From NCBI GenBank assembly GCA_951406725.2, contig OX597820.1, positions 59,768,001-59,832,000 on the forward strand: 64,000 nt of DNA, in the 5' to 3' direction. This stretch comes from Octopus vulgaris (lineage: Eukaryota). The translations under genes were made by a program, and so were the position numbers. Positions 14,131 through 56,075 of the stretch are shown piece after piece (position 1 is the stretch's first letter; every line of letters begins with the position of its first letter). The notes beneath the pieces were generated by a model. It did no database searches. It had not been told where the DNA came from and saw only the letters and a program-made list of their open reading frames with translations.

Positions 14131-14778
14131 TGTAGTTGTATTATTTTTCTGTAAATACGTGTAAATCCTTGGGCATTTGCCTGCTTCGAGCAAAGGCGGT
14201 ACCGTAACCAATGGACTAAATGTGAGGCGTGTTCATTGCAAGTTGAAAACTATATATTTGTCTGCGTCTCGGTATTCTTTTTTCCATCATTCCCAAGGCG
14301 CCTATTATTAAAAGGATTATTTCTGTTTTCATGCTTACATTCTACATAACTTTATTTCCATTATACCATCGTCCTGTATCTAGACTGTTCCATGTCTTTA
14401 AAAATAATTGTGGTAGAAGGCTGTATGCAAAGAATATTTTACAAGTTGTAGATAATAATAAAAAAAAAAAACGTTTCATTACTTCTTAATGAAACGTACA
14501 AAGCGTTATTCATTGAGATTAGAATTAATAAGGGGCAATCTATAACTTTTTTGGAGCTAGTTATTGCTCTCCGCGTGCTGGAAATTTGTAAATGTTTTCG
14601 ACTTTTAAGACAAGCAAAGAATACAAAAATACATGTGTGATAACTTTAACATCTTTTTAAATATTCTGTCCTCTATCTTGCACTTGTTCCAGTCTTTTGT
14701 CTGTCGCCATATTGGGGCACAGCCTTGATGGGTTTAGTCGAACAAATCGACCTATCAACAAGAGGCAATTTATATATA

Positions 14779-15717
14779 CGGTAACACCTCACTTTACGAG
14801 GACACGCTTTACGAGATTCCGGGTTTAGGAGTTTTATTTTTCAAGCACAACATCCAAATTTTAAACGAAGTGCAAAAGTTTCTACTAAAATAACAAATGC
14901 TTCTGCGTCTTACCGAGAAATTTATAGAGAGCAAAAAAAACGCTTCTTTTAAGCAAACATCTTTAGACTTGTTTTTTAAAAAGAAATCAACAAGGCGTAG
15001 GAGTGGCTGTGTGGTAAATAGCTTGCTTACGAACCACATGATTCCGGGTTCAGTCCCACTGCGTGGTACCTTGGGGAAGTGTCTTCTACTATAGCCTCGG
15101 GCCGACCAAAGCCTTGTGAGTGGATTTGGTAGACGGGAACTGAAAGAAGCCCGTCGTATATATGTATGTATGTATGTGTGTGTGTGTATGTTGGTGCGTC
15201 TGTGTTTGTCCCCCCAGCATCGCTTGACAACCGATGCTCATGTGTTTAGGTCTCCGTAACTTAGCGGTTCGGCAAAGTGACCGATAGAATAAGTACTAGG
15301 CTTACAAAGAATAAGGCCTGGGGTCGATTTGCTCGACTAAAGGTGGTGCTGCAGCATGGCCACAGTCAAATGACTGAAACAAGTAAAAGAGTAAAGGTGT
15401 AAGTCCGTCTACGAGTGTTTGTGAATCTAGGATCGCACGAGTCAAGTGCGAGTGAAAGTGATTCAGAAAACGATTATAATAATGATATAAATGATCTTGA
15501 CATTCTTTTTACTTTACATAAAATATTCTTTACATTCTACTGTTGTTTTGTTGCCATTTATTTAAGATTATTATAAATTTTAGAGGTAAAATATTTTTCT
15601 GGGAACAAATTACAATTTATAACATTGCTACTATGGGAAATTATTGCTCTGCTTTACGAGTTTTCGCTTTACGAGCGGTTTCCAGGAACAAATTATCTCC
15701 TGTATCGAAGTATTACA

Positions 15718-16253: not shown

Positions 16254-17010
16254 TGTTGTGGTGAGAGTCATTGACACCCCTGGCGGACTGAAGAATGGAC
16301 TAGCCGAATTCTTATAAAAAGTAGAGGCTGGTAGTAGTCGGGGGAGAACGTTTTTGGTAGTCTCGCGAGGTACGTCATGTGAACACATTGATTAAATCTC
16401 CGCTACCTAATTTATCTATACCAGGATATAAAAGTGGCGACGAGATATTCGAAGCTTGCGTCGGACGTTTAATTTTTTTTTTTTTTTGGTGCGAAACCAA
16501 AGAAAAAATGATTTAACATGGAAGACTTGTTGGCTCGCATGGTGCAGTTGCAACAGCAACAACAACAGCAACAACAGCAAATACAAAAACAACTACAACA
16601 GCAACAACAACAATACCAACAGTTACTAGATGTAATGTTGAAGAAGTCTGAAAATACTTCAGGTTCATTCTCGTCAGACAGCGTAACAAATTCAAATGGA
16701 AAATTTATTTATAACCCAGAAGAAGGTACTACTTTTTCTTCATATTTTAGAAAATACGAAGAAATCCTCAGAGAAAGATGTAAAAATTTGAATGACGAGA
16801 AGAAGGTGCAACTACGAAAAGTACTGCAGCCCCTGTTCAATACACGTTGGCAATGTTTAAATTTAGTTAAAAAAGATGAAGATTTCGTCGCCTATGCTGG
16901 GGTCGTTGATAGAGAGTGTGAAAATTCAAATTAAATTAATTAACCCAGTTTTGTTCAAATGTCTGAAAAGATGCTGATATACGTTCCCCTATATTAACAA
17001 AATTAAAACA
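16254..17010 (+). mobile_element. Ty3/Gypsy LTR retrotransposon 5' stub: LTR (~16254-16431), PBS (16435-16444), truncated gag
   Basis: TGT start, TATA-like and attaaa motifs, PBS TGGCGACGAG. ORF 16518-16934 has polyQ, then F.YNPEEGTTFSSYFRKYEEI and LFNTRWQCLNLVKK..DFVAYAGVVDRECE, as in invertebrate Gypsy gag. Confidence 0.8.
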
Positions 17011-17088: not shown

Positions 17089-17807
17089 GCAAGCTCAAAC
17101 ATCCTAAATCTTTCGACTGTACACTTTCTCGATTATTATATTTTATTTATTGTTTATTTATATTGCTTTTGGGAAACAAATTCGTTATTGGATATTAGTT
17201 TCCAACAGTCACTGGTTCATTGGATATTTTTGACAGTAAGCGTGAGGAAGACAGGGATCGTTTGAGCAATTCGGACAGAACAAATACCACACATTTTTTC
17301 CATTTGAAAACACACCCCACCTTTAAAAATTTTTTTTTTTTACCTCGCTAATGTTTACATCATTCATCGTCATATATCGACGAGCAAACTCGAGAACTAT
17401 ATGAAGAAGAAGAAGAAGAAGAAGAAGAAGAAGAAGAAGAAGAAGAAGAACTGGCACTTGACCGGGAAGATCTATGATCAAGCCGTTTTTGTTGTTTGTG
17501 TTTTAATAGTATGTGCGTGTGAGTGTGTGTGTATGTATGTGTGTGTGTGTATGTGTATTGTTTTTGTCCCCCACCACCATTTGATAAACGGTGTCGATGT
17601 GTTTACATCTCCGTAACTTAGCGGTTCAGCAAAAGTGGTCAATAAAATAAATACTGCGCTTAAATAAAGAGTGAAGTCGATTCGCTTGACTATAAAATTT
17701 CTCGAAGGCAGTACCACAGTCAGGCCGCTGTCTGACACTGACACAAGTAGAAAATGAAAGATATATGCCTCTATATCTATGTATGTATACACATTATATA
17801 TATATAT

Positions 17808-18283
17808 ATATTCTATAATTATATACATAATTATAATCAGAGGTCAGCTAATTGCTTCGCCACGCACTGAATTAGAAAATAGACGTCAATGTCTTTTCCA
17901 CTGCCATAAAGATCTCCGGGAGAGTAACAAACATTTTTACGTAGGCAAAAAGAAAAAAATAATGAATCCTCACGACTCAGATTAGCTGCATACGCGTTTC
18001 GATATTAAAGTAAAGTTATATTTACTTACATGCTGCACTGAAGATGAGAAATAAGTAAGAAAATATAAGTTTATATATATACTTTAATCTCGAAACGCGT
18101 ATGCAGCTAATGTGAGTCGTGTGGATTCATTATTTTTTCTTTTTGCTTACGTAAAAAAGTGTGTTACTATCTCGGAGATCGTTATGGTAGTAGAAAAGGC
18201 GTGCGCATCTATTTTCTAATTCAGTGCGTGGCGAAGCAATTAGCTGACCCCAGATTATAATTATGTATATAATTATAGAATAT
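17808..18283. repeat. Long imperfect inverted repeat (~220-bp arms, ~25-nt loop)
   Basis: 17808-18029 is the reverse complement of ~18055-18283 (e.g. ggtcagctaattgcttcgccacgcactgaattagaaaatag / ctattttctaattcagtgcgtggcgaagcaattagctgacc). Confidence 0.95.
18032..18107 (+). ncRNA. Type I hammerhead ribozyme (Penelope-type), intact core
   Basis: gctgca-CTGAAGA-t-gaga...tctc-GAAA-CGCG-TA-tgcagc: 6-bp stem I, 4-bp stem II, palindromic stem III, GUA site (cut after 18101). Confidence 0.85.
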
Positions 18284-18379
18284 TTGTATAATTTTCCTAA
18301 AAAGGTTATTTTGACGTACTGACTACTTGTAAAATTGTAAATTATTAATTAATTAATTTTACCCTTTTATTATTATTGC

Positions 18380-18516
<137 letters not shown>

Positions 18517-18538
18517 CAGAGAGAGAGAGAGAGATAGT

Positions 18539-18690
<152 letters not shown>

Positions 18691-19159
18691 CATACATACT
18701 TTCAAACATGTTTATATAGAGTGTAACCGGCCGAAACTGCAAAGACGATCTGGAGCTCGACTGAGGATAGGAAGCTCTGAATGACCCGTCCTTGATTTTT
18801 CGTGTTCTTTTTTGTATCACCTAACTGTCCGAATGTTTTGTTGTTGTCTGTTACGTTCATGCTCCATTTTTTTGTTTTCTTCATATATATATATTAATAT
18901 ACATACGTATGTATATATATATATGTATGTGTGTGTGAGTGTGTGTGTTTATGAAGTATATAAAATAAACCTATACGTATTCGTGTATGTATTAATGTAC
19001 TCATGTTTGTTGTGAAACCCAATAGCAGTGAGTAAGACAGTGCAGTTTTACATGTATGAACGTGTGTGTGTGTGTTTATGTAGTGATGTGAAACAAAATG
19101 CCGGTCTGTAGTCAGTATTGTAAAATACGACATATATAATGTACATGCGTGCATGTGAG

Positions 19160-20970: not shown

Positions 20971-21711
20971 TACGTCTGTGTGTGTGTGTGTGTGTGTGTG
21001 TATTATATATCAAGAGACTTAAAACGAGGGACATGTTGGTTGAGATATTCTATGAAAATACAGATAATAAACCACTGCGCAAAATTATTTGTTGATTAAA
21101 ATAATCTGCGTTTATATATTTTCTTCTCAGCAAATGCTGAGCGGATGTATGTAAAACGGCATTCAACGAAAGAGAGCGCCGAGTTACAAAAGTTTGAAAA
21201 TCACTGCTCTATTGCGTTGAGGCAATCTAACTGGAAAGTACTTGCACAGACACTATGAAGGCTTTAGTTATGTATTTGATGTTTATTAGTAGAGAAAAGT
21301 GTACGTTGTAATGTGTTTCTCTGATGTGTTTATTAACTAGGCTTTGGTCAGTGTTGATGAAACAAATGCATGGTGGAGATTAATAATGGTGTATGCGCTA
21401 AGGTACTTGATGTGGTTGGTGGACTCGATAATTTCACTTCAACGTGAGGTAAGGTAAATAGTGTTGAACAATGATTATGTCAAAGAAAGAAAGACAAAGG
21501 CGACCACTAAAAGTAAAAAGTAAATAAAACGAACTGAAGCTCCAGAGTCCCAAATAATTATGGTTACAAATGAATAATGTGGATATACTGATCTATAGAA
21601 AAACATGTTGACAGCTACGGTTTAGACCTCTTCAGTGAAATATACCCAAACCGAGTAGGATATTTGAACATTATTTCTATCAAGTTTAGCGTCTTCTCAG
21701 TGACTCCCTTT

Positions 21712-22105
21712 CTCTTTTACTCTTTTACTTGTTTCAGTCATTTGACTGTGGCCATACTGGAGCACTGCCTTTAGTCGAGCAAATCGACCCCAAGACTTAT
21801 TCTTTGTAAGTCTAGTACTTATTCTATCGGTGTCTTTTGCCGAACCGCTAAGATATGGGGACGTAAACACACCAGCATCGGTTGTCAAGCGATGTTGGGG
21901 TGACAAACACAGACACACAAACACACACATATATATACATATATACGACGGTCTTCTTTCAGTTTCCGTCTACCAAATCCACTCACAAAGCTTTGGTCGG
22001 TCCGAGGCTATAGTAGAAGACACTTGCCGAAGGTGCCACGCAGTTGGACTCAACCCGGAACCATGTGGTTGGTAAGCAAGCTACTTACCACACAGCCACT
22101 TCTGC
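21712..22105 (-). mobile_element. SINE family A, full length
   Basis: Reverse complement of 14993-15396. Confidence 0.9.
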
Positions 22106-29859: not shown

Positions 29860-32195
29860 GTTCGTAAGTTTCTATTAATTGTTATATTTCTTGTTGTGCC
29901 TATTGTTGGACTTATTGTTGAAAAAATTGTAGTATAGTTTTCTTTCGAAAGCTATCTGTGGTTTTCCCCTGTGGGGGAAATATTAATTGTCGGCAAGATG
30001 CTGAAAAGTTCGTGTTCTTCGTCGGGGGACGAATCATCGATTGAAAGAGAAGCAAAGAAAACAGAAAGCTTAATTTTTGACAACGTTTCTGATGTGTCGG
30101 AGAGCGAATTTCCAACATTACCAAGAGTTATGAACACCAATAGAAAGACAGAAAAAAGACCATCCAAAATGAAGAAAGGAAAAGTTTTGCGTTAGCGGCT
30201 GGTGGTGGAACGAGACAGCTGTCAACTGACATAAAAGAATATTTAAAATATAAAGATATGATAACAGAACGAAATGGAATAGTAAAAGTGGAACTACCAG
30301 AAAAAGAATTAACGGAATCAAAAAAGTAAAACATTATTTTAAAATCATTTTGCTTAAAAGCACGTAAAATTGATAAAATATGTGAACAAAAAATTGAAAA
30401 ATGTCTAAAACCCATCTGGCAGGACATTACATATCTAGCCAGAGGGAAAAAGTTTGGAACCATCGTGGTGAAATTCAAGAATGCAGAAACGGCACAAAAA
30501 CACTCTATAAAATCTTTAGAGTCGGAAGACACTCTGTTAATCCCAATTTACATGGGAATGAGAACATCAAAATTGAGAATACCTAGAATTCCGCCCGGAA
30601 TAAACCCTATGTGCTTGATGGTGGCGGTCCTGGCAAACAGGGAAGATAGTATTAACCTCCTGCAGGCTACCATCATAGAAAATACTTATTGGACAGGTCA
30701 GACGCTTAACATCATATTGCAGGCTGACCAAAAGAGTTTAGAACCGCTCCCAGAAATCGTGGAAGTAGGGGAGGAAGTTCTAAATATTTTTGTTGAGGGG
30801 CGTAAGTCCCGATGTTTCCAGTGTGGCCAACTGGGTCACATTAAAAAATATTGTAAAGAAGGTGTAGAAGAATCAGACGGCGAGGAGGAAGAAAGAGAGA
30901 GAGAAACAGAAGAAAAAATAAACACTAAAAGGAAAATGGAAGGATCGAACCAGCAAAAGCAGAGCGAGCCGAGACCAAAAAACAGCCAAGAGAGACAGAC
31001 CGAGGAAGGCGGAGGGGGTGGCGATCAGAGGAATAGCTGCACTTTACAGTAAAAACGAAGATTTAATGCGGGAAATAAAAACAAAAAAATCAGCAACTCG
31101 ATTAATTGAACTGTCAGAGAAATATAAAAACTACGAATTTTACGAATTGGACGAAAAAACGTACATGTTGTCTAACAATATAGAAAATCGGTCTCAACAT
31201 GGAGACTTGATTTTCACTAATCCATGTTTGAAAGCTTACCATCTCCGACTCAAGAAAAGGTGGAGAATCCCTCTCCACAAGACACCCCGATCTAAAAGGT
31301 AAGTCATGTCAATTCCCATTGGTTGTATAAATGTTCGTGGCCTGATGTCAAGCTGGAAGCAAGGACGCTTCCTAAATGACATCAGGTCAAGACATTTGGA
31401 TATAATTGTTGCAACGCAAACCCGGGTGAAGGGGCCAAGTGATCTGCTCCCACTCCTGAACGGCTACGAGAAATACGTTTCTCCGAGTCGGGCGGGAGGT
31501 GGGGGTGTGGTGTTGGTCCTACTAAAAAGAAACCGGGTAGCCGAGAAAAAGTTGTTTTTTTTCTGATCCAGAAGACAGGTTGGTGGTTCTTGACCTGACA
31601 TTCAGTTGTGACAAGACAATCAGGCTGATCGCTCTTTATGCACCCAACATTATGGGCCCGTAAACTGAATATTTTCGTGACCTGGGAAAGTTCCTAGCCA
31701 CGACGCATTCGCTAGTATTGTTAGGAGACTTTAACACAATATGTGTAGCACACTCAGATTGTGTTGGCTCGAACATGAACAGAAAATGTAAGCCAGGCTT
31801 ACGAGATCTGCTAAGTCAATTTCAGCTAACAAATCCATATAGGTTGGAACACCCGAATACTCCACAGTGGACGTGGTCAAATAGTGACGGGTCTTCCAGA
31901 ACATATCTAGATAGGATTTTAATTAGAGAAACAGATAAGTCCATAGTCGAGTGTCCACTAGTCAGCTACAATGACCACAAGATGGTTACCTGTAAACTGA
32001 CGGTAGATAAGTTGCATAGTCAGGGATCTGGCTACTGGAGACTCAATATGTACCTTTTGGCGATTGAGGAGTACAGAAATCGGATCAAGATGTTAATACA
32101 GAGGGCATTAACAGGTACCATCATTAATAACAAATGGTGGTACGCCCTAAAAAGAGTAATCAAATATGAGTCTATTAGGTTTAGCATAAGTTTAG
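29860..32195 (+). mobile_element. Tx1/L1-clade LINE, 5' half (ORF1 with zinc knuckle, ORF2 AP endonuclease), disrupted
   Basis: ORF1 CFQCGQLGHIKKYC (CX2CX4HX4C). ORF2 from 31306 has GCINVRGL, LYAPN, LGDFN, WTWSNSDGSSRTYLDRILI, DHKMV and GSGYWRLN; stops and frameshifts. Confidence 0.9.
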
Positions 32196-32196
32196 A

Positions 32197-32630
32197 TGGT
32201 TATGTGCAGACCCTTCTGAAGTTCCAAGTGTTATGCATACAAAATTTCCTGCAACTGTCATGGTTTTAGGAGTTATCAGCAATGAAGGACATGTGATACC
32301 TCCTTACTTCTTTCCACAAGGTCTTAGAGTTAACTCTGCTGTCTATAGTGAGGTCCTGGAAATAATTTTTAGCCCTGGATCGACAGTGTATGCAATGGAA
32401 GGCCATATGTGCTTCAGTAAGGCCCTGCACTATCACACATGGCTCTAGTAACACAGGAATGAATGGTTGAAAATGTTCATGATCACAACCCCTAACATTT
32501 GGCCTTCTAATCCACCAGATCTCAATCCATTGGATTACTACATGTAGATCGTTGTTGAGAGAGGTCAATGAACACGCCTATAACACCAAAGATTCTTTGA
32601 AAGCTGCCATAGTCAGCGTAATGTCCAAAA
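32197..32630 (+). mobile_element. Tc1/mariner (DD37D/maT-like) transposase fragment
   Basis: MHTKFPATVMVLGVISNEGHVIPPYFFPQGLRVN...WPSNPPDLNPLDYY; same type as 1320-2400. Confidence 0.85.
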
Positions 32631-41609: not shown

Positions 41610-41679
41610 TTACCGCATTTATCACTGATGAAGAGAAGGTTCTTATGAACTAACTCTGAAATCGGGTCCGATATGGTAA
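41610..41679 (+). ncRNA. Type I hammerhead motif
   Basis: ttaccg..tatc-a-CTGATGA-agag..gttc-ttat-gaac..ctct-GAAA-TCGGG-TC-c-gata-tggtaa; stem I extends past an internal bulge, stem III imperfect. Confidence 0.7.
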
Positions 41680-41858
41680 TAACGGAATTTTTTAGAAATT
41701 TCTGTCGGCTTTCTTTGAAAAAAGTGGTTGTAGTGATAAATTACATGATTATTGACGTAGTGCCTATTTTCGGCATATTTTGGCATTAGACATTTTTTCG
41801 TTTGCCCTTACTTATAAATTGTTTATATATATATATATAAAACAATACACGACGGAAT

Positions 41859-46129: not shown

Positions 46130-47075
46130 CTAGCAGCATAGTCCGGCGTTGCCCGGGTATGTAAGAGCCCCTAGTAGGCAACGACTATCCCAATCTAGTC
46201 CTTTCCCTCTAGGGAACGAAGGCGCATGTGTAGGTTGCAATGTCTTCTCTTCACTCGAATACTTCTGTGTATACGATGTTCCTAGCTGTCCCTTTGGGCG
46301 AAAACATGAAAACATCATTGCACCTCCCAACGCGTAAACAGCCCACGTAGAGTTGACCGTGGGCGAAGCACTGTTCGCCCAACTGTAACCCAGCGACTTG
46401 TAGCGTTTGGCCTTGGGATTTATTGATGGACATTGCGAAGCAGAGTTTAACAGGAAACTGAGAACGCCTGAAGTGGATTGGTAGGTCAGCGTCCGACGGT
46501 TGAAGGTGCATGCGTGGAATGAAGACGTCCTCTCCTTCCCACAACCGGTAAGTATTGTGGCCGTTATTAAATGTGGTGGCAAATGTTTCACAACCAGACG
46601 TGTGCCGTTGCACTGTTTAGGTGGTACCAAATTCCTGATGAGCATAATGGGCGCACCGACTTTTAACTTCAGGATGTGTGGCGGCAGGCCTGGCGGTTCA
46701 AGTGAATTCAGGAATTCAACAGGATAATCGGCAAGCTCGGCGGGGTCTACTGTCCTATCAATAGATTTGTAGACGTGGACATCACTAGGAATAGCTTCAA
46801 GTAGCTGGATATTGATGGAGTTGAGAGTTAAAAAGGTCGAGTTGCGTCCCCTAGACAGTCTGTGGTTTGTGTTTCCGATTCTCGACCCCATGTCGAATTT
46901 ATCAATTTTTTTTCAGAACTGGGGGGAACTTTTCAAAATTTTCGCTGCATTAGTTTTGAATTATGACATTGGGCTATGTGTGTGTCAAGTTTCATCAGAA
47001 TCGGTTGAAAGCCGTGGTCAGGGTGAGGGTACAACCTGACAGACACACAGACACACAGACAAACTGCCGTTTATA
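46130..47075 (-). mobile_element. Internally deleted Helitron retaining the C-terminal PIF1-family helicase fragment
   Basis: YPVEFLNSLEPPGLPPHILKLKVGAPIMLIRNL...CNGTRL, frameshift, FRRSQFPVKLCFAMSINKSQGQTL...FAHGQLYVG..RV...NIVYTEV; 3' ccgggcaacgccgg hairpin plus CTAG. Confidence 0.92.
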
Positions 47076-54664: not shown

Positions 54665-55340
54665 CAGTAGTTTTATTTTTATAGTGTGCTTTCACTTCAC
54701 TACCGAGCGCAGCTCTGTGTGCCTTGGGTATGTGCTGTGATTTGTTGTGATGCTCTGATGCTTATTGTATGGAAAGTGTTCTGCGTAGGATGTGTGCAGT
54801 GCCTAGTAGTGCAATTTTCTGTATGTTATATGTGTTTGTAAGTCCTGGTGTTTTTGTTATGTATTTGTCTGAATATTTTTTTATCATGCCTAATGCACCT
54901 ACTATGATAGGAATTGTTTCTGTTTTCAGATTCCACATTCTAGTTACCTCTATTTCCAGGTCTTTGTATTTTGAGAGTTTCTCCATTTCTTTTAGAGACA
55001 CGTTGTCATCTGCTGGTATTGATACATCAATTAGAAAGCATTTTTTTCTTCATGATCTCTGACAACTATATCTGGTCTGTTGGCCTTAATTTCTCTATCT
55101 GTGTGTATCGGCATATCCCAGAGTATGGTTGCTTTCTCGTTTTCTGTGACCTTTTCTGGTGTGTGCCTATACCATCTTTTTTCTGTTGTTATTCCATAAT
55201 GTTGGCATAGCTTCCAATGTATGTAGGTTCCAACTCTGTCATGTCTGTGAATATATTCCTTCTTAGCCAGGACTGGGCAGCTAGAGATAATATGATTTAT
55301 TGTTTCTTGTCCATCTCCACATATTCTGCAGTTACTTGTA
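54665..55340 (-). mobile_element. R4/Dong-type LINE 3' fragment: CCHC finger and PD-(D/E)xK REL endonuclease
   Basis: CRICGDGQETINHIISSC...YIHRHD...ILWDMPIHTDREIKANRPDIVV...LIDVSIP..KEMEKLSKY...IIVGALG; 3' end joins (TAA)n. Confidence 0.92.
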
Positions 55341-56075
55341 ATATTTCTTTTTTTTTCTTTTCATTACATGTTTTTGGTAATTTCTGGTGGGGAGGCTTTG
55401 GTCTTGTGCTGCAATTAAAAATTAAAAATTATTATTATTATTATTATTATTATTATTGAGGCGGCGAGCTGGCAGAATCGTTCTGAGTTCAAATTCTGCC
55501 GAGGTCAACTTTGCCTTTCATCCTTTCGGGGTCGATAAAACAAGTACTCCTCCCTCAAAATGGTTGCCCTAATGGCTAAATTTGAAACCATTATTATTGA
55601 GTTGTATTTGATTTATCTAAATTTAAGGCTCGCCGAAATTATTTGGTAGGCCGAAAATCGCCCCGCTGGAGGCTACACAACCATAAAAGCCAGTAATAGA
55701 TTCCTGGTGTTTCTATTCACAACTTGGAATAAAGTAATTATTGAAAAAGGACACCAATTGTAGTGTAAATAAATATTTTGAACTGAACTTACTTGGAGCG
55801 TTCGAATGTGTTCCGCAGCAAATATGATAACAACAACAACAACAACGGTAATAATAACAACAACAATATCAACAATAATAACAATCCATTCTATTATAGG
55901 CACAAGGCCTGAAATAGACCCCCCCCCCAGTACTCAACTAGTACTTAATTTATCGAGCCCGAAAGGATGACAGGTAAAGTCAACCTCGGCGGAATTTGAA
56001 CTCAGAACGTAGCGACGGACGAAATACCGCTAAACATTTCATCCGGTGCACTAACGAATCTGCCAGCACGCCGCC

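Follow-up and report, generated by a model that had tools for sequence, protein, structure and literature searches.

The window considered here is a 64,000-nucleotide stretch of the Octopus vulgaris genome (assembly GCA_951406725.2, contig OX597820.1, positions 59,768,001 to 59,832,000 of the forward strand), and all coordinates below are counted within it. It is AT-rich (33-44% GC in 2-kb bins), with many microsatellites and decayed fragments of mobile elements, a repeat landscape reminiscent of coleoid cephalopods. The subject of this report is a compact unit that comprises, in order, a (TA)n run, an inverted truncated copy of a repeat, a forward truncated copy of the same repeat, a one-sided tail, and a second (TA)n run (Table 1). 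Self-comparison revealed no third copy of the repeat in the 64-kb window; likewise, no head-to-tail tandem units with a hammerhead are present there, only the one unit.

Table 1. Features of the fold-back unit and its flanks.
Feature	Position	Strand	Basis or remark
(TA)n run, left junction	17795-17807		Sequence; likely insertion target, masks any target-site duplication
Left arm: tail-less inverted copy of the repeat's 3' end, truncated at 5'	17808-18029	-	Antisense to 18055-18283
Forward 5'-truncated copy: hammerhead, pLTR-like body, tail	18030-18382	+	Family contigs align from 18030 onward
25-nt unpaired loop	18030-18054	+	Part of the forward copy that is absent from the inverted copy
Contents of the loop	18030-18054	+	Stem I 5' strand, CUGAAGA, stem II 5' strand
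Minimal type I hammerhead of the Penelope kind	18032-18107	+	Descriptor, folding, motif features in PMC4209133
Right arm	18055-18283	+	8-nt insertion (near 18072) and cluster of changes (18199-18207), both private
Family extension on one side ("tail"), about 90-100 nt, with (TA)n at its end	18284-18382	+	Bridging family contigs
Compound microsatellite TA/GA/GATA/GACA, right junction	18383-18700		Sequence

A first-pass annotation of this DNA had described imperfect inverted arms of about 220 bp around a loop of about 25 nt, and the local alignment bears out both: 203 of 228 aligned columns (89.0%) are complementary between the arms, which pair inward to 18029/18055 and leave 25 nt between them. 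Outward, the homology stops at 17808/18283; the few pairs beyond these points are chance pairings of TA runs. The plus strand of the fold-back folds as a single hairpin (-300.6 kcal/mol, z = -34.9) that none of 100 shuffles equals in stability, and it contains perfect duplex runs of 42, 31 and 22 bp. As that annotation had also stated, the loop contains the 5' strand of stem I and the CTGAAGA box of a hammerhead, and the left arm, by its pairing with 18055-18283, is antisense to the 3' half of the ribozyme. The arms differ by 19 substitutions in 204 well-aligned columns (9 transitions and 10 transversions; K2P about 0.10), a distance that bears out the claim that the structure is old, and an 8-nt AT insertion lies in the right arm near 18072. 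Because (TA)n flanks the unit on both sides, a target-site duplication is unreadable within the TA runs.

Other repeats share the window with this unit. Inverted copies of a different short interspersed repeat bracket the hairpin at 15102-15403 and 21708-22000, about 6.3 kb apart and 84-91% complementary to one another; a third, older copy lies just upstream of the hairpin at 17523-17662. A match to U4 snRNA at 14182-14341 on the plus strand (42.8 bits against an Rfam gathering score of 46, E 2.6e-06) is probably a pseudogene or part of a SINE. Further mobile-element fragments (DUF7083, AP-endonuclease family, Pif1 helicase and zf-RVT) were found at 16512-16931 (+), 31664-32266 (+), 46133-46912 (-) and 55034-55360 (-). 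We take the DUF7083 fragment to be gag-like, and the Pif1 helicase fragment is presumably Helitron-like.

The hammerhead motif is found on the plus strand only, at 18032-18107. Its stem I consists of six Watson-Crick pairs (18032-18037 with 18102-18107), and the CUGAAGA box (18038-18044) is followed by one extra U at 18045. Stem II has 4 bp (18046-18049 with 18088-18091), opens with the pair G10.1-C11.1 (G18046-C18091), and encloses 38 nt in a long, AT-rich helix II/loop II region. The rest of the ribozyme, which had been assigned to the right arm, was located there as GAAA (18092-18095), a palindromic CGCG loop III (18096-18099), and UA (18100-18101). The boxes CUGANGA and GAAA...UH stand in type I order together with helices I and II, and cleavage is predicted 3' of A18101. 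An ATG at 18044, at the start of stem II, meets a stop after four codons. According to PMC4209133, hammerheads of metazoan Penelope-like elements (PLEs) have an extra base after A9, a G10.1-C11.1 pair and a palindromic loop III; U18045, the first pair of stem II and the CGCG loop match these traits, in agreement with the Penelope type proposed at first pass. The same source reports that the minimal motif, tested in vitro, did not cleave as a monomer and cleaved at a low level as a dimer only. By analogy, the present motif, whose helix III is one pair with a palindromic 4-nt loop, would be of the dimer-dependent type, with self-cleavage a prediction.

With a relaxed hammerhead descriptor, the window yields two sites, whereas all 200 block shuffles yield none. 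A strict descriptor, composed after the site at 18032-18107 was known, found one site in the window and none in 200 shuffles. Rfam hammerhead models matched nothing in the whole window, nor in a 109-nt stretch at E up to 10, and the identification therefore rests on the descriptor and the published features of the minimal motif; the long loop II and the missing helix III may have defeated these models. In isolation, the segment 18024-18119 adopts a three-way junction (-23.0 kcal/mol, z = -3.55), with 0 of 200 shuffles as good, and in an unconstrained co-fold of two copies of the motif the active dimer is not the best fold. An 8-bp extension of stem I (18024-18031 with 18110-18117) was dropped as native ribozyme structure because it uses bases of the inverted arm and G18112, a position occupied by C in the family (14907 of 15263 depth units in run X1). 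The Rfam match to MIR837 at 17960-18132 (66.7 bits against a gathering score of 117) was rejected as a generic hairpin match. The second site of the relaxed descriptor is an unrelated type I hammerhead-like motif at 41619-41685 (+), laid out as a 6-bp stem I, CUGAUGA, stem II, GAAA, a 4-bp near-palindromic helix III, and UA. It has no inverted arm, no sequence likeness to the motif at 18032-18107, and no Rfam hammerhead match; folded alone, its best fold is not the hammerhead form.

The first-pass annotation had proposed that a plus-strand transcript has two exclusive folds, a long duplex and an active hammerhead. Exclusivity holds in the folding model, but a functional switch does not follow from it: when the left arm is included, stems I and II can be formed only at a cost of about 36 kcal/mol (probability about 1e-24), and the left, blocking arm precedes the ribozyme in the transcript. 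In a short transcript without the left arm, the hammerhead stems form with a probability of 0.83, and some 30 nt of the arm's inner end (start at 17990) lower this value to 1e-8 or less. In longer arm-free transcripts it ranges from 0.6 to less than 0.01, depending on the ends, and even the motif on its own does not fold robustly in this model. By these calculations the hairpin would always win, and the arrangement would be a lock rather than a switch. A plus-strand read-through transcript would form a long hairpin unable to self-cleave, as a passive result of the layout.

The unit belongs to an abundant interspersed repeat. Words of the stretch are present in 17 of the 24 public runs listed, in 9 studies, and three DNA-sized runs yield 1049, 1280 and 927 contigs that match it. 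Contigs from four public runs (X1, X2, X4 and X9) were aligned on 17985-18378 at 80% likeness. Summed depth, a rough measure that gives no copy number, climbs toward the 3' end of the repeat and then drops 19- to 22-fold just beyond the arm end, in each of the three DNA-sized runs. Over the ribozyme core, it is about 2% of the peak at 18251-18278, with the same shape in all three, although this figure is possibly an underestimate, since the inverted-arm part of the stretch may attract some of the contigs. The family has two 3' end points, at about 18283 and about 18376-18382, and because cover falls where the arms end, the left arm ends at the main one. Family contigs join the tail to the arm (record 8 of X1 spans 18229-18367 and record 24 of X4 spans 18213-18329), and loose contig ends at 18374-18377 continue into TA-rich repeats. 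Over the last 50 nt or so of the tail (18329-18376), cover is much above that at 18293-18320 and the loose upstream sequence differs, which suggests several related subfamilies with a common terminus.

No Pfam match to a PLE reverse transcriptase (RT) or GIY-YIG endonuclease was obtained among all 180 complex stop-to-stop frames of at least 55 aa in the window; membership in the Penelope-like group thus rests on the type of ribozyme and the anatomy of the insertion. No RNA run is listed among those with words of the stretch, and run X9, which is guessed to be RNA, contributes 16 family contigs, none of which is at least 95% alike; neither result bears on transcription of the locus. Metagenome matches to a 19-nt motif of the arm were set aside as chance, all ten loci agreeing over only 19-22 nt around the seed. 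A candidate intron from GT at 18055 to AG at 18223-18224 was rejected, as its AG is not constant among family copies.

The family states at positions where the arms differ were taken by hand from position tables in which 102 rows were hidden; in the rows displayed, the family agrees with the left arm at 10 positions (18060, 18069, 18112, 18147, 18181, 18199, 18201, 18203, 18207 and 18252) and with the right arm at three directly shown positions (18172, 18188 and 18205), while both arms differ from it at a few sites. The family does not have the 8-nt insertion of the right arm. Private changes are no fewer in the ribozyme-bearing arm than in the antisense arm, and the insertion comes on top of them. 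The segment 18199-18207 is itself variable in the family, and position table and loose-end letters partly disagree there. One contig of X2 extends over the private cluster and agrees with 18108-18237 in 126 of 130 letters; the right arm may be present in that sample too. The arms have family-minority states in common at 18104, where the family differs from both in 18219 of 18516 depth units (X1), and at 18173, which points to one template for both or to later conversion between them. Changes that preserve G-U pairing show no plus-strand bias and no editing footprint (6 against 3, p = 0.51). Judged from these sequences, both arms appear to have drifted since insertion, without visible selection.

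Other copies of the family fold back elsewhere. Among the 15 joints displayed of 23, five connect opposite strands (18080/18221, 18100/18341, 18151/18213, 18153/18215 and 18153/18344); four more lead from inverted-arm sequence (18023-18028) to 18218-18339 and are read as fold-backs too. The loose ends of record 26 of X9 are mutually reverse-complementary, making it a fold-back that has a different junction and lacks the core's 5' half. Of 3367 pieces, 32 were displayed, and none of these spans the 18029/18030 junction. A copy with the identical junction would align straight through and never register as a joint, and the joints at 18213-18221 coincide with an alignment break caused by private changes of the locus copy; with these limits, breakpoints vary between family copies. 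For this reason, the position of the core exactly at the apex looks incidental, and is best seen as a result of where two cDNAs ended. Scattered breakpoints in other copies are one of the two conditions, the other being a lack of transcription, under which the first-pass annotation would have regarded the structure as an incidental rearrangement.

We consider it quite probable that a hammerhead-bearing Penelope-like family, or a non-autonomous derivative of one, deposited its 3' end here in an old insertion that was dead on arrival. The copy consists of two truncated pieces head to head, with a one-sided extension and (TA)n on both flanks. PMC8557442 describes PLE insertions in which an inverted 5'-truncated copy adjoins the 5' end and the tail is often at one end only, a description that recurs in PMC8969392. 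The arms match that published layout, as the one-sided tail and the (TA)n flanks may do, and the earlier suggestion of an inverted, truncated pLTR is upheld accordingly. From the known PLE mechanism, the element's endonuclease would have cut an AT-rich target, and the RT would have started on a single template RNA at two internal sites, with each cut strand as a primer. The two cDNAs would then have ended early, near 18055 and 18030, before their 5' ends were joined. On this reading, the core came to lie at the apex because one piece extends 25 nt beyond the other and happens to include the 5' half of the core there.

An improbable alternative is that the inversion came after insertion: in the course of DNA replication or repair, a solo hammerhead repeat (a PLE end or a monomer of a non-LTR retrozyme) would have folded back where a short inverted micro-repeat lies, near 18024-18029/18055-18060. 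The junction is AT-rich, micro-homology with the native sequence upstream of 18030 is possible, and the inverted arm of another copy seems to end within a few nucleotides of the same place (joint 18028 to 18232). Non-LTR retrozymes are, moreover, reported to be PLE derivatives (bioRxiv 10.64898/2026.07.22.740005). Yet the left arm ends at the main 3' end point of the family, a limit that a repair event would not be expected to observe; that arm copies neither the tail nor the right flank, and the window is devoid of a tandem unit.

We give slightly less credence still to a functional RNA, according to which transcription of the locus would yield a ribozyme, silenced or switchable, or an ADAR/siRNA hairpin that restrains the family, and the locus would be retained for that role. 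The catalytic core is intact, the long duplex runs would suit Dicer or ADAR if transcribed, the X2 contig hints that the arm may be common to another sample, and there are family contigs in the run guessed to be RNA. The hammerhead fold is nonetheless uphill by the margin given above, with the blocking arm transcribed first, and in PMC4209133 motifs with this kind of helix III did not cleave in vitro as monomers, hence there would be little to silence. Nor did the ribozyme arm acquire fewer private changes than its partner, and the G-U-preserving changes are not biased toward the plus strand. With about 5% change per arm, an intact core of about 15 nt has about even odds and needs no selection. 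A functional switch is not supported. Least credible of all is a DNA transposon of the MITE or foldback type, with long terminal inverted repeats, TA target sites and a chance hammerhead: the unit is short and non-coding, with long inverted arms and TA on both flanks, but its ends are asymmetric (the family tail is on one side only), its inner junctions differ between family copies, and cover is 3'-biased, as for retrotransposed 5'-truncated copies.

Read as a Penelope-like insertion, the locus has close parallels. Complex insertions of endonuclease-positive PLEs, as described in PMC8557442 and PMC3846280, likewise contain a head-to-head inverted truncated copy that is a few tens of nucleotides shorter. 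Head-to-head junctions are described in the latter source for Pen2a_Av, in which the inverted pLTR falls 37 bp short of the direct one; the difference here is 25 nt. The 5' truncation and a hammerhead in the repeat are common features, and the extension at one end and the AT-rich or (TA)n target may be as well. The locus differs in having no ORF and in a tail of about 90-100 nt, against a published tail length of 30-40 bp, and its clade is unassignable from this copy. Compared with the minimal hammerheads of metazoan PLEs (PMC4209133), it has a long AT-rich helix II/loop II of 38 nt, and one motif rather than two, the inverted copy being without the 5' half of the core. Non-LTR retrozymes (bioRxiv 10.64898/2026.07.22.740005) are likewise non-coding, a few hundred nucleotides long, and equipped with a type I hammerhead, but they form head-to-tail tandem arrays, whereas this locus is a single head-to-head unit. 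With Poseidon of Anolis (PAc; PMC11167929) it shares a pair of 3' end points, a presumably AT-rich target, and an ATG where stem II begins; its end points are further apart, and because its ATG opens only four codons, we did not file the locus under Poseidon. That source links the tail to two RT start sites and AT-rich cleavage. Penelope elements and hammerheads have been recorded in a squid genome (PMC6962438). The locus looks like one more fossil of a described insertion pattern. The Penelope and hammerhead literature searched held no title on antisense-silenced PLE hammerheads; the consensus supplements of PMC8557442 could hold the family.

Some junctions of the family touch on the ribozyme itself. 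In the joint 18100/18341 (X2 and X4) and in record 26 of X9, whose forward piece starts at about 18101-18103, pieces begin near the predicted cut site, a possible trace of hammerhead-cut templates. We attach little probability to the speculation that the family's junctions bear witness to hammerhead cleavage in vivo and that its hairpin copies serve the family as a dsRNA brake of its own. Against a record of cleavage, summed cover directly upstream of the cut site is still high, and n = 2. In Anolis Poseidon, use of cleaved RNA as an RT template was not observed (PMC11167929). If the idea were true, fold-back copies would supply antisense RNA or dsRNA against the ribozyme region.

A conserved and expressed hairpin that silences a ribozyme would be notable, and nothing found at this locus supports one. 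A single locus is of little weight. The family, with about a thousand contigs per run and varied fold-back junctions, is a natural sample for two questions of PLE biology. One is the location of the two RT start sites, on which a tail two to three times the usual length bears. The other is whether RNA cut by the hammerhead ever serves as a template.
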